Origin: Escherichia coli
Lineage (GTDB): Bacteria > Pseudomonadota > Gammaproteobacteria > Enterobacterales > Enterobacteriaceae
Direction: 5' to 3' (one strand)
Length of the DNA: 64,000 nt
Assembly (NCBI RefSeq): GCF_022846255.1
Contig: NZ_AP025682.1
Both the position numbers and the translations under genes were made by a program. Positions 3,059 through 6,045 of this stretch are shown piece by piece; the first letter of the stretch is position 1, and the number at the start of each line of letters is the position of its first letter. The notes beneath the pieces are model-generated. The model was not told the origin of the DNA. It ran no database searches and saw nothing but the letters and a program-made list of their open reading frames with translations.

Positions 3059-3367
3059 TTACGCTGCGGGTTGTGCAGCAGGTTTTGCCGGTTGCTGATG
3101 GCTGTGTTTCTTGGCGTGTTTCTTCGCTGCCTGCGCTTTTTGTTCAGGAGCTTTCTGTTCAGCTTTCGCATTTTTATGATGCTTTTTAGCCGCCTGCGCT
3201 TTCTGGGCAGGTGCTGCTTTATGCTGTTTTTTATGATGTGTAGTTTTCGCCGGCGCTGCTTTGGTGGTCGTCGCAGTCGGAGCAGGTGTGGTCACAGTTT
3301 CTGCAGCAAAGGCGGCAGAAGACAGACCCATAGCAGCGGCAACAACCAGAGCTAATACTTTTTTCAT
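3059..3367 (-). CDS. asr: acid shock protein Asr
   Basis: 102 aa from [17 protein letters not shown] signal peptide; Lys/Ala/His-rich low-complexity periplasmic protein; track ORF starts 9 codons upstream. Confidence 0.9.
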
Positions 3368-3470
3368 TGTCATACCCTCAATTTGTTTTTTCATTTAACC
3401 CCACTGCGGGGCCGTTGAAATAACTATATCCCTGGGAATGGCAGACTTCCGTGAGTGGTTGGTTTCAGCG

Positions 3471-3484
3471 TGTAACGATATGTA
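3471..3484 (-). promoter_or_regulatory. RstA-box-like site upstream of asr
   Basis: Minus-strand sequence TACATATCGTTACA matches the RstA box consensus TACATNTNGTTACA as I remember it; about 105 nt upstream of the asr start codon. Confidence 0.45.
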
Positions 3485-3751
3485 CAAACGCTGAATAAAT
3501 TACAGCGTTGATAATAACGTATTGTGACTTAAGGGAAATTTAGCTACCAATAATAGTAGTCTTGATCGGGTTAACTATTTTACTACTTACAAAGCGGTAG
3601 AATAACTGCGCATCAGTAATAAATGACACATAGCAAAATGAATCCGTTTATTTGGGTACTTATAATCCTGATGACACTAGATGCGCTGCGGGAATTGGCT
3701 GGCGCTTCGTCTATTTTAGGATGGCTATTAACGTTGGTTTGAGCAGGCAAT

Positions 3752-3792
3752 AAGTCCGGACGGGTATTTACCGCAGTCCGGACTTATTTTTT
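3752..3792. terminator. stem-loop at the 3' end of ynfM; strong T-run on + strand, weaker U-tract on - strand
   Basis: 10-bp perfect stem AAGTCCGGAC/GTCCGGACTT with 14-nt loop, followed on + strand by ATTTTTT. Confidence 0.6.
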
Positions 3793-5045
3793 CAGGCGTG
3801 CAGACGATGATGCAAACGCGTCCCGACCAGCAGAGCAATGACCAGCATCAGAGCAATAAATGCGCCGACGCCGTTCCAGCCATAGTTATGCCAGAAAACA
3901 CCACCCAGCGTCCCGGCAATACTCGACCCCAGATAGTAACTGAACAGATACAGCGAGGAGGCCTGGCCTTTAGCGCGTTTTGCTCGGGGGCCGATCCAGC
4001 TGCTGGCTACTGAGTGGGCTGCGAAGAATCCGGCTGAGAAGAGTAACATTCCGGCAAAGATCAGCCACAGCGAGCTGAATAAGGTCATCAATAAACCAAA
4101 CAGCATAACCCCCGTCGAAAACAACATCACCGGACCGCGCCCATAGCGGGTGGTCATGGTTCCGGCTTTTGGTGAGCTCCATGTACCGGTCAAATAAGCC
4201 AGCGATAATAAGCCAACCACGGCCTGGCTGACATGCCAGGGGGAGAGCATCAACCGATAGCCGACGTAATTAAACAGCGTGACGAACGACCCCATCAGCA
4301 AAAAGCCTTCTGCGAACAATAACGGTAATCCCCGGTCACGCCAGTGCAGACGAAAGTTGATGAATAACGTCTTAGGGCGCAGTGAAGTCGGGCGAAAATG
4401 GCGTGATTCAGGGAGGATTTTCCAGAACATTAACGCCGAGGCCAGCGCGAAACAACCGATTGCCGCCAGCGCAATTCGCCAGTTGAAAAAGTCCGTGAAG
4501 ACACCGCTAATTAAGCGTCCGCTCATGCCGCCAATTGAGTTGCCGCTGATATACAACCCCATCGAAAAGGCCACGAAACTGGGGTGGATTTCCTCGCTAA
4601 GATAAGTCATGCCAACAGCTGCTACGCCACTTAACGAAAGCCCAATCAAGGCGCGCATAATCAAAATGCCGTGCCAGCTGGTCATCATTGTCGAAAGTAA
4701 CGTACAAATGGAGGCCAACAGTAGCGCCGTGACCATCACTGGTTTGCGACCAATGGCATCGGATAACGGGCCAGTAAACAGCAAACCGATAGCCAACATC
4801 GCCGTAGAAATGGACAGTGAAATACTACTGTTCGCGGGCGTTAAGCCAAACTCCTGCGAAAGCACCGGAAGGATAGGTTGCACACAATAGAGAAGTGCGA
4901 AGGTTGCCAGTCCGGCAGAGAACAGCGCCAGGGTGACGCGCATAAATTGCGGCGTACCGCGTTTAATAAATTGATTTGGCTGAGAAATGCTTTGCTTGTC
5001 AGTGTCGCTTGCCGGAGCGCCATCAACAGTTGTAGTACGGCTCAC
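3792..5045 (-). CDS. ynfM: MFS transporter YnfM
   Basis: 417 aa ORF, multi-TM MFS-like. Confidence 0.9.
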   Translation of the reverse strand: MSRTTTVDGAPASDTDKQSISQPNQFIKRGTPQFMRVTLALFSAGLATFALLYCVQPILPVLSQEFGLTPANSSISLSISTAMLAIGLLFTGPLSDAIGRKPVMVTALLLASICTLLSTMMTSWHGILIMRALIGLSLSGVAAVGMTYLSEEIHPSFVAFSMGLYISGNSIGGMSGRLISGVFTDFFNWRIALAAIGCFALASALMFWKILPESRHFRPTSLRPKTLFINFRLHWRDRGLPLLFAEGFLLMGSFVTLFNYVGYRLMLSPWHVSQAVVGLLSLAYLTGTWSSPKAGTMTTRYGRGPVMLFSTGVMLFGLLMTLFSSLWLIFAGMLLFSAGFFAAHSVASSWIGPRAKRAKGQASSLYLFSYYLGSSIAGTLGGVFWHNYGWNGVGAFIALMLVIALLVGTRLHHRLHA

Positions 5046-5151: not shown

Positions 5152-6045
5152 ATGAATATTGAACTTCGTCATCTGCGTTACTTTGTTGCGGTTGCAGAAG
5201 AGCTGCATTTCGGGCGCGCCGCTGCCCGCCTGAATATTTCGCAACCACCGCTAAGTCAGCAGATTCAGGCGCTGGAGCAACAAATTGGTGCCCGACTGCT
5301 GGCACGGACCAATCGCAGTGTATTGCTGACGGAAGCAGGAAAACAGTTTCTTGTAGATAGTCGGCAAATCCTGTCTATGGTGGATGATGCTGCCGCTCGC
5401 GCTGAAAGGCTGCATCAGGGCGAAGCGGGGGAGTTGCGCATTGGTTTTACTTCGTCCGCTCCTTTTATTCGGGCGGTGTCCGATACGTTATCGCTGTTTC
5501 GCCGTGATTATCCCGATGTCCATTTACAAACCCGCGAAATGAACACTCGCGAGCAAATCGCTCCGCTCATTGAAGGAACGCTGGATATGGGATTGCTGCG
5601 TAACACAGCGTTACCGGAGACGCTTGAACACGCAGTCATCGTCCATGAACCGCTTATGGCGATGATCCCGCACGATCATCCCCTAGCAAATAACCCGAGT
5701 GTAACGCTGGCTGAACTGGCGAAAGAACCCTTTGTCTTTTTTGATCCGCACGTCGGAACAGGGCTGTATGACGATATTCTCGGGCTGATGAGACGTTACA
5801 ATTTGACGCCCGTCATCACTCAGGAGGTGGGTGAGGCAATGACCATCATCGGTCTGGTTTCCGCTGGTCTGGGTGTTTCAATTTTGCCTGCGTCATTTAA
5901 ACGTGTTCAGCTCAACGAAATGCGCTGGGTGCCGATTGCTGAAGAGGATGCGGTTTCTGAAATGTGGTTGGTCTGGCCGAAACATCATGAACAAAGTCCG
6001 GCTGCGCGTAACTTTCGTATTCATCTGCTGAATGCTCTCAGGTGA
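5152..6045 (+). CDS. ynfL: LysR-family transcriptional regulator YnfL
   Basis: 297 aa, N-terminal HTH (LRYFVAVAEELHFGRAA), divergent from ynfM. Confidence 0.9.
   Translation: MNIELRHLRYFVAVAEELHFGRAAARLNISQPPLSQQIQALEQQIGARLLARTNRSVLLTEAGKQFLVDSRQILSMVDDAAARAERLHQGEAGELRIGFTSSAPFIRAVSDTLSLFRRDYPDVHLQTREMNTREQIAPLIEGTLDMGLLRNTALPETLEHAVIVHEPLMAMIPHDHPLANNPSVTLAELAKEPFVFFDPHVGTGLYDDILGLMRRYNLTPVITQEVGEAMTIIGLVSAGLGVSILPASFKRVQLNEMRWVPIAEEDAVSEMWLVWPKHHEQSPAARNFRIHLLNALR

Follow-up and report, generated by a model that had tools for sequence, protein, structure and literature searches.

The spacer between asr and ynfM of Escherichia coli raises the question of whether a perfect TATAAT hexamer and a strong stem-loop, both on the same strand, mark a non-coding RNA or the gene of a small protein. 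In the stretch of E. coli DNA analyzed here (contig NZ_AP025682.1, 64,000 nucleotides, hereafter the window), a reading made from the sequence alone had described these elements as an orphan promoter/terminator unit spanned by a 39-codon open reading frame (ORF), and had considered a non-coding transcript more likely than a protein. The present analysis points to another answer: window positions 3598–3792 on the + strand are likely to be a monocistronic gene for a small protein, convergent with ynfM. Transcription would start approximately 7 nt downstream of a conserved −10 element, TAGAAT, and a leader of approximately 28 nt, A/C-rich, unstructured, and without a Shine-Dalgarno sequence, would lead to the start codon at 3638, a position that comparison between species shows. 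The ORF would then yield a very hydrophobic peptide of 34 residues with one long predicted helix, a member of the KPN_01571 family. A 13-bp hairpin six nucleotides past the stop codon, with UUAUUUUUU after it, ends the transcript, and the same hairpin, which abuts the ynfM stop codon on the other strand, would also terminate ynfM. The features are as follows.

3598–3603, + strand: candidate −10 element TAGAAT in the context GCGGTAGAAT, proposed from its conservation, with an implied transcription start at about 3610
3604–3637, + strand: A/C-rich leader without a Shine-Dalgarno sequence, containing an in-frame upstream ATG at 3623 (from alignment and predicted fold)
3638–3742, + strand: ORF of 34 codons plus stop, MNPFIWVLIILMTLDALRELAGASSILGWLLTLV, for a small hydrophobic protein of the KPN_01571 family (NF033695) with a predicted single helix
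3661–3666, + strand: the TATAAT of the sequence-only reading, within codons 8–10 (CTT ATA ATC, Leu-Ile-Ile) and probably incidental
3749–3792, + strand: intrinsic terminator of the small gene, with a 13-bp stem (3749–3761 with 3776–3788) and the U-run UUAUUUUUU (3784–3792), from fold, covariation, and a mapped 3′ end
3749–3794, − strand: the same hairpin seen from ynfM, whose stop codon (3792–3794) it immediately follows, with the tail UUAUUGCC, from fold and position

The reading frame and its protein family

The 39-codon ORF (3623–3742) is present in the window, and its translation is identical to that quoted in the sequence-only reading. Nei-Gojobori counts were made on the 28 codons that align without gaps. 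Against Citrobacter and Kosakonia, the proportion of synonymous differences in the ORF frame (pS) was 0.76–0.91, which is near saturation, and the proportion of nonsynonymous differences (pN) was 0.16–0.22, while in the two other frames pN exceeded pS. Against other Escherichia, the ratio of nonsynonymous to synonymous substitution rates (dN/dS) of the ORF was 0.05–0.16. The differences fell on codon positions 1, 2, and 3 as 10/2/17 in the comparison with Citrobacter R56 and as 10–11/1–3/16–17 with four Citrobacter-type sequences. Changes at second positions are very rare overall (0–3, compared with 16–17 at third positions). Within the ORF, every difference between the window and strain MG1655 is at a third position and synonymous. 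The ORF is 86–93% identical in divergent Escherichia, compared with 68–78% for the spacer 41–140 nt upstream. Because of the cross-genus pattern of codon-type substitutions, the ORF was read as a gene: the pattern indicates a translated gene under purifying selection and not a base-pairing RNA, and the ORF is most likely protein-coding. Together with the membership in a curated family described below, this speaks against the earlier preference for a non-coding transcript.

The only NCBIfam match of the ORF was NF033695, with a score of 63.3 bits against a cutoff of 35 (E = 1.2e-17). The match extends over residues 6–34 of the 39-residue reading and positions 1–29 of the 30 in the profile, and thus begins at the second methionine. 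NF033695 carries the name ‘KPN_01571 family protein’ and the model name trnsprt_adja_30. The ORF belongs to it by its score over the curated cutoff, its form of approximately 30 residues, and the transporter gene next to it, and the E. coli peptide has the form of the family, i.e., the start M-N/S-P-F/I-I-W/Y-V and the invariant core L-D-A-x-R-E ... G-A-x-S. The profile probably includes E. coli sequences, so that the score of the hidden Markov model (HMM) alone is partly circular; the substitution analysis does not depend on the HMM. No family match for the peptide was found in Pfam and none in PADLOC, a profile search of the PDB gave nothing below E = 1, and Rfam at E ≤ 10 returned only noise-level matches to small nucleolar and hammerhead RNAs. 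A tblastn search of the 64-kb window detected no paralogue, and the literature search found no paper with ‘KPN_01571’ or the peptide sequence in its text.

In RefSeq, the identical protein is a ‘KPN_01571 family protein’ (WP_001299090.1), and the exact sequences of 39 and 34 residues are each found on at least 1000 contigs in the protein collection. The Prokaryotic Genome Annotation Pipeline (PGAP) places a coding sequence (CDS) at the ORF in many E. coli RefSeq records, as ‘KPN_01571 family protein’ or ‘hypothetical protein’. In strain 7/2 the annotated CDS is the 39-codon ORF (WP_001299090.1), and in strain MP1 the PGAP CDS is confined to the final 23 codons despite intact DNA; the annotation is therefore inconsistent. 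Across E. coli records, the PGAP starts for one intact ORF give products of 39, 34, or 23 residues under two product names. Two E. coli records call the same ORF at 1777–1848 and at 1729–1848 of their own coordinates, and many such length variants are seen among the protein clusters. In MG1655 (NC_000913.3) no feature is annotated between ynfM and asr. The earlier remark that K-12 has no feature here is thus correct for that record, yet the ORF is annotated by RefSeq/PGAP in many other E. coli genomes.

Comparison between species places the conserved start at the second ATG (3638), which predicts a product of 34 residues. The peptide was taken to begin there because the upstream ATG (3623) is not conserved. 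E. albertii has GTG in its place, and it is absent in most Citrobacter. E. whittamii and Escherichia sp. E1V33 carry a 1-nt deletion between the two ATGs, and in both the upstream ATG opens a mini-ORF of five codons whose TGA overlaps the main ATG (ATGA). Citrobacter sp. NCU1, the exception among Citrobacter, has this arrangement as well, where it has arisen independently. Such an overlap might allow translational coupling. The mini-ORF products are MTHSK* or MHTAR* (at approximately 2986–3003 of the relatives’ locus sequences); the arrangement thus occurs in two separate lineages, the E. coli counterpart of this ATG being in frame. In the fold predicted for 3610–3792 the region around the AUG at 3638 is unpaired, and the Cronobacter homologue has AAGGAG nine nucleotides upstream of its start. 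A leaderless mRNA beginning at the ATG at 3623 was considered and dropped, as this ATG lies 19 nt past the −10 element, which is too far.

Homologues were sought by exhaustive and word-indexed protein searches and by a genome scan with one strict peptide pattern, which returned eight loci. Family members are present in E. albertii, E. whittamii, E. marmotae, cryptic Escherichia lineages, and Shigella, and homologues of thirty residues in Citrobacter (MNPIIWVVFVLLALDAIREMVGASSILGMW), Kosakonia (MNPFIWVICSLMALDAMRELMGASSVFALF), and Cronobacter (MSPFIYVFGLLLTLDALRELAGASSVIGLW). The word-indexed protein searches gave matches in Escherichia, Shigella, Cronobacter, and Citrobacter, and no genuine Klebsiella member. 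Among complete E. coli genomes, the core segment is intact in 5348 out of 5426.

The transcript and its signals

The hairpin is shown to be a working terminator of the small gene by its covariation and by a published map of MG1655 3′ ends. The stem-loop with a T-run ending at 3792, described as strong in the sequence-only reading, has a 13-bp stem that begins at 3749 and contains the GC-rich core GUCCGGAC/GUCCGGAC, after which UUAUUUUUU runs through 3792. Its predicted energy on the + strand is −22.9 (centroid) to −24.8 kcal/mol (minimum free energy) with z = −4.5, and none of 200 shuffled sequences folds equally well. A simple terminator scan, which accepts only loops of 3–8 nt, did not report the hairpin, whose loop probably exceeds that limit. 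Within Escherichia, 98.2% of the stem cells are paired over the 13 pairs, compared with 23–52% in a control in which the 3′ partner was slid by 1–3 columns. Three pairs change on both sides (U-A to C-G, A-U to G-C, and C-G to U-A), and with Citrobacter added the number of stem pairs with double changes rises to six. RNAalifold also proposed a helix inside the ORF (columns 68–72 with 123–127, approximately window 3676–3680 with 3728–3732), with double changes in two pairs when Escherichia is compared with Citrobacter; it was dismissed as a probable artefact because its 3′ arm is not homologously aligned between the two genera.

The TRS data (PMC10687069) place minus-strand 3′ termini of MG1655 at 1670951 (in Supplementary Data 2) and at 1670950 (in Supplementary Data 3, obtained by RNAtag-seq and term-seq on cultures growing exponentially in LB and EG media). 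Both are labelled ‘Antisense’ to ynfM, with exactly this hairpin as their upstream sequence. They correspond to approximately 3793–3794 of the window, one to two nucleotides beyond the U-run. The orphan + strand unit described earlier thus does have a transcript that ends at its hairpin, the absence of which had been named beforehand as a refutation. According to a secondary source (PMC4070566), Raghavan et al. (2011) also detected an RNA in the ynfM-asr spacer that is independent of Hfq and has a Rho-independent terminator. EcsR1 and EcsR2, from the same laboratory, are located at other loci. The family is thus already in NCBIfam and RefSeq, and the transcript is probably already on record.

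On the ynfM strand, the hairpin has a predicted energy of −23.4 kcal/mol (z = −5.8). The canonical U-run is on the + strand, and the tail UUAUUGCC of the ynfM strand is weaker. The available TRS tables (PMC10687069) contain no ynfM-strand 3′ end at 167099x–167102x. Judging from its anatomy, the hairpin is probably used in both directions and would terminate ynfM more weakly.

The longest upstream block conserved between Escherichia species and Citrobacter is AAGCGGTAGAAT, and the spacer flanking it is only 60–62% identical. TAGAAT lies 34–35 nt before the conserved ATG in both Escherichia and Citrobacter, with TAAAAT in its place in one Citrobacter, and Cronobacter has TATAGT 29 nt before its ATG. 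We infer that TAGAAT is the −10 element, which would place the transcription start at about 3610 and give a transcript of approximately 180 nt. TAGAAT lacks a −35 element and may therefore depend on an activator or on an alternative sigma factor. On reading the sequence upstream of TAGAAT, no convincing match to a PhoP or CpxR box was seen, and a Salmonella sigma-S paper that mentions ynfM covers the ynfM promoter only.

Competing explanations and points against a gene

The explanation closest to the sequence-only reading is that the internal TATAAT (3661–3666) drives a non-coding RNA of approximately 120 nt to the terminator, either alone or as a 3′-derived or dual-function small RNA (sRNA) beside the mRNA; we consider this unlikely. 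The hexamer is present and perfect, and its upstream context is as weak as had been noted: the best −35 match is ATGAAT (three out of six positions, with a 17-nt spacer), there is no TG extension, and a consensus promoter scan found nothing on the + strand of the spacer. TATAAT is depleted in the window approximately four-fold and not enriched, with eight copies on both strands where shuffles that preserve dinucleotides predict 34 ± 6. A perfect copy thus carries some weight, and the internal promoter was kept as a minor rival. The hexamer arose by a synonymous ATT-to-ATA change and is found in all five E. coli sequences compared; ATA is a rare codon in E. coli, and this rarity was also counted in favor of the internal promoter. 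Outside E. coli the hexamer is not conserved, its counterpart being TATTAT in E. whittamii, Escherichia sp. E1V33, strain E69, and E. albertii, and it is absent at this site in Citrobacter. A sigma-70 promoter at 3661 would have a −35 element or an extended −10 and would be conserved, and neither is found; the internal TATAAT probably does not act as promoter. The position of the ORF start, upstream of this hexamer, had been taken to favor a non-coding RNA, an argument that is valid only if the internal TATAAT is the promoter. A terminated + strand transcript does exist (PMC10687069), and the ‘sRNA’ reported in the spacer (PMC4070566, citing Raghavan et al. 2011) would fit such an RNA; the same source describes it as Hfq-independent. 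With this, with codon-periodic changes unlike those of a base-pairing RNA, and with no Rfam match even at E ≤ 10, the locus does not have the properties of an Hfq-dependent trans-acting sRNA.

An improbable explanation is that the peptide is a membrane-damaging type I toxin silenced by an RNA that is antisense to it or overlaps it. Read-through of the terminator would make the convergent ynfM transcript antisense to the small gene and thus a candidate silencer, but the scans found no antisense promoter, and there is no long structured 5′ untranslated region, the inferred leader being short. Expression in standard conditions is apparently poor, to judge from the available parts of Stringer et al. 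(2021), the Cappable-seq supplement, and an acid-stress ribosome profiling (Ribo-seq) study. The peptide is, as would suit a toxin, small, very hydrophobic, and predicted to form a single helix; it has no match to a toxin family in NCBIfam or PADLOC, and its gene is present as a single copy in the window without a paralogue, with a median of one place per E. coli genome. The Asp, Arg, and Glu in the middle of the helix are conserved, and we know of no such conserved mid-helix charges in Hok, TisB, or Ibs-type toxins. Least probable of all is that the hairpin is merely the ynfM terminator and that the ORF and the hexamer arose by chance in an AT-rich spacer. Taken alone, a 39-codon ORF within 400 bp of spacer would be unsurprising, and the hairpin does follow the ynfM stop codon directly. 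However, it is the + strand that has the canonical U-run, with only UUAUUGCC on the ynfM strand, and the sole 3′ end at this site in the available TRS tables (PMC10687069) is on the + strand as well. This mapped end and the purifying selection on the ORF across genera already contradict the explanation.

Several observations weigh against the small-protein gene that we prefer. By direct reading, there is no Shine-Dalgarno sequence before either of the in-frame ATGs (3623 and 3638), as had been stated before. The best −35 match for TAGAAT is two out of six positions, i.e., none is recognizable, and the promoter signal is weak. The available part of the Cappable-seq supplement contains no transcription start on the + strand, the ORF does not appear in the available supplement texts of either Stringer et al. 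(2021) or the acid-stress Ribo-seq study, and the available term-seq tables of Adams et al. (2021) list no 3′ end here; each of these is a weak negative. The link to ynfM is not universal either. In Citrobacter the gene converges on the ynfM orthologue as in the window, in Kosakonia one extra gene lies between the small gene and ynfM, and Cronobacter carries the gene elsewhere (copC-copD-yebY ... pphA), where no transporter gene adjoins it. The transporter adjacency is thus real here and not universal, and in Escherichia, Citrobacter, and Kosakonia it could be plain inherited synteny. Finally, a 13-bp deletion (window 3701–3713) cuts the peptide to 22 residues (…RELAF*) in 73 out of 5426 genomes, among them Nissle 1917, CFT073, ATCC 25922, and clone D, which we take to belong all to the sequence type 73 (ST73) lineage. 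At least this successful lineage can therefore do without the gene, which is otherwise widely maintained.

Overall, the observations of the sequence-only reading were confirmed, while its interpretation was most likely right in part and wrong on the coding status and on the promoter. What is new is that the K-12 reference annotation probably lacks a gene, one with an experimentally mapped terminator. MG1655 is the reference genome for bacterial genetics, and the gap between ynfM and asr is in its curated record. As the small-protein surveys checked, in their available parts (Stringer et al. 2021; acid-stress Ribo-seq), do not contain the ORF, it is a candidate for the K-12 small-protein catalogue. 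The case also holds a caution of method: a perfect TATAAT and a missing Shine-Dalgarno sequence suggested a non-coding RNA, and the codon statistics across genera indicated the opposite. Beyond the possible missing gene, the finding is an ordinary one, as the architecture is not unusual and the family is catalogued.

Genomic setting, the peptide, and known systems

The window strain is an E. coli other than MG1655, from which it differs at several positions of the ynfM-asr spacer. The window covers the E. coli ynfL-ynfM-asr-ydgU-ydgD region in reverse orientation, with ydgD at 1962–2783 (−), ydgU at 2883–2966 (−), the end of asr at 3059 (−), ynfM at 3792–5045 (−), and ynfL at 5152–6045 (+). 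From the stop codon of the small ORF to the convergent ynfM stop codon there are 49 nt. By BLAST, all but four of the 5426 complete E. coli genomes contain the spacer (5422). Plasmid-typed records account for four of the 5475 matches, and some genomes have two copies. The gene ydgU, just downstream of asr, is itself a small-protein gene of 27 codons (2883–2966, −), and asr is thus flanked by two tiny genes for hydrophobic peptides, ydgU and the 34-codon ORF. In a Cronobacter-type contig, the family member converges on an unannotated hydrophobic ORF of 43 codons (4115–4246, −; the pair spans 4001–4246), and the two genes upstream of the family member (186 and 95 residues) have no NCBIfam match.

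By genomic SELEX (systematic evolution of ligands by exponential enrichment), the ynfM-asr spacer has been listed as H-NS-associated (PMC3946193), which could account for a low expression of the small gene in the laboratory. The same source gives the asr promoter as GTCACA-18-TGTAAT, at approximately 3528–3499 of the window on the − strand (region 3395–3560).

The peptide has a grand average of hydropathy (GRAVY) of 1.48 and a net charge of −1. AlphaFold2, run with an alignment of 18 sequences, predicted one helix over residues 3–33 with a mean predicted local distance difference test (pLDDT) score of 88. M1, P3, V7, L14, D15, A16, R18, E19, G22, and S25 are invariant in the 18 sequences. A helix of this length could span the bilayer, and the peptide is probably inserted in the inner membrane. 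If the helix does span the bilayer, the conserved Asp15, Arg18, and Glu19 would sit in the middle of the membrane. A21, G22, A23, S24, S25, and G28 line the C-terminal half of the predicted helix, an arrangement compatible with helix-helix packing. The most plausible role may be the binding or modulation of a larger membrane protein, and the nearest candidate for such a partner would be the neighboring major facilitator superfamily (MFS) exporter YnfM, although both suggestions are weak inferences by analogy. It is rather doubtful that the peptide is a dedicated accessory or regulatory subunit of YnfM, comparable to AcrZ with AcrB, or that the transcript, whose 3′ end is complementary to that of ynfM, controls ynfM through convergent transcription. 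If either were true, it would give the KPN_01571 family its first function, in addition to a missing gene for the K-12 annotation.

With the other members of NF033695, the window ORF shares its position beside a transporter gene, ynfM, as the model name implies. The Escherichia members differ in having four extra C-terminal residues (34 compared with 30), and the transporter adjacency fails in Cronobacter. AcrZ with AcrB, KdpF with KdpABC, MgtS with MgtA, and MgrB with PhoQ are known cases of small single-helix inner-membrane proteins that bind larger membrane proteins. The peptide resembles these four in its size class and in its predicted single hydrophobic helix, and its gene in being a tiny stand-alone unit with its own terminator, in an enterobacterial spacer beside a transporter gene. 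In contrast to them, it has conserved Asp15, Arg18, and Glu19 in the middle of the helix and no sequence similarity to any of them, and its gene converges on ynfM instead of being co-transcribed with it.

SgrS/SgrT and AzuCR are examples of intergenic sRNAs and dual-function RNAs of E. coli. A spacer transcript of approximately 120–180 nt that ends at an intrinsic terminator would be of the same kind, and the candidate sRNA of Raghavan et al. (2011) is reportedly located here (PMC4070566). The difference is that selection here acts on the peptide, that Rfam gives no match, and that Hfq independence is reported for the RNA. Intrinsic terminators that work in both directions between convergent genes have reportedly been described by Ju et al. 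in 2019 with SEnd-seq. The present terminator differs from them in being unequal, with UUAUUUUUU on the + strand compared with UUAUUGCC on the ynfM strand, and only the + strand terminus is documented in the available TRS tables. It resembles them in that a single hairpin separates the two convergent stop codons and is followed by U-rich sequence in either direction, and in that this hairpin is conserved with compensatory changes in Escherichia and Citrobacter.

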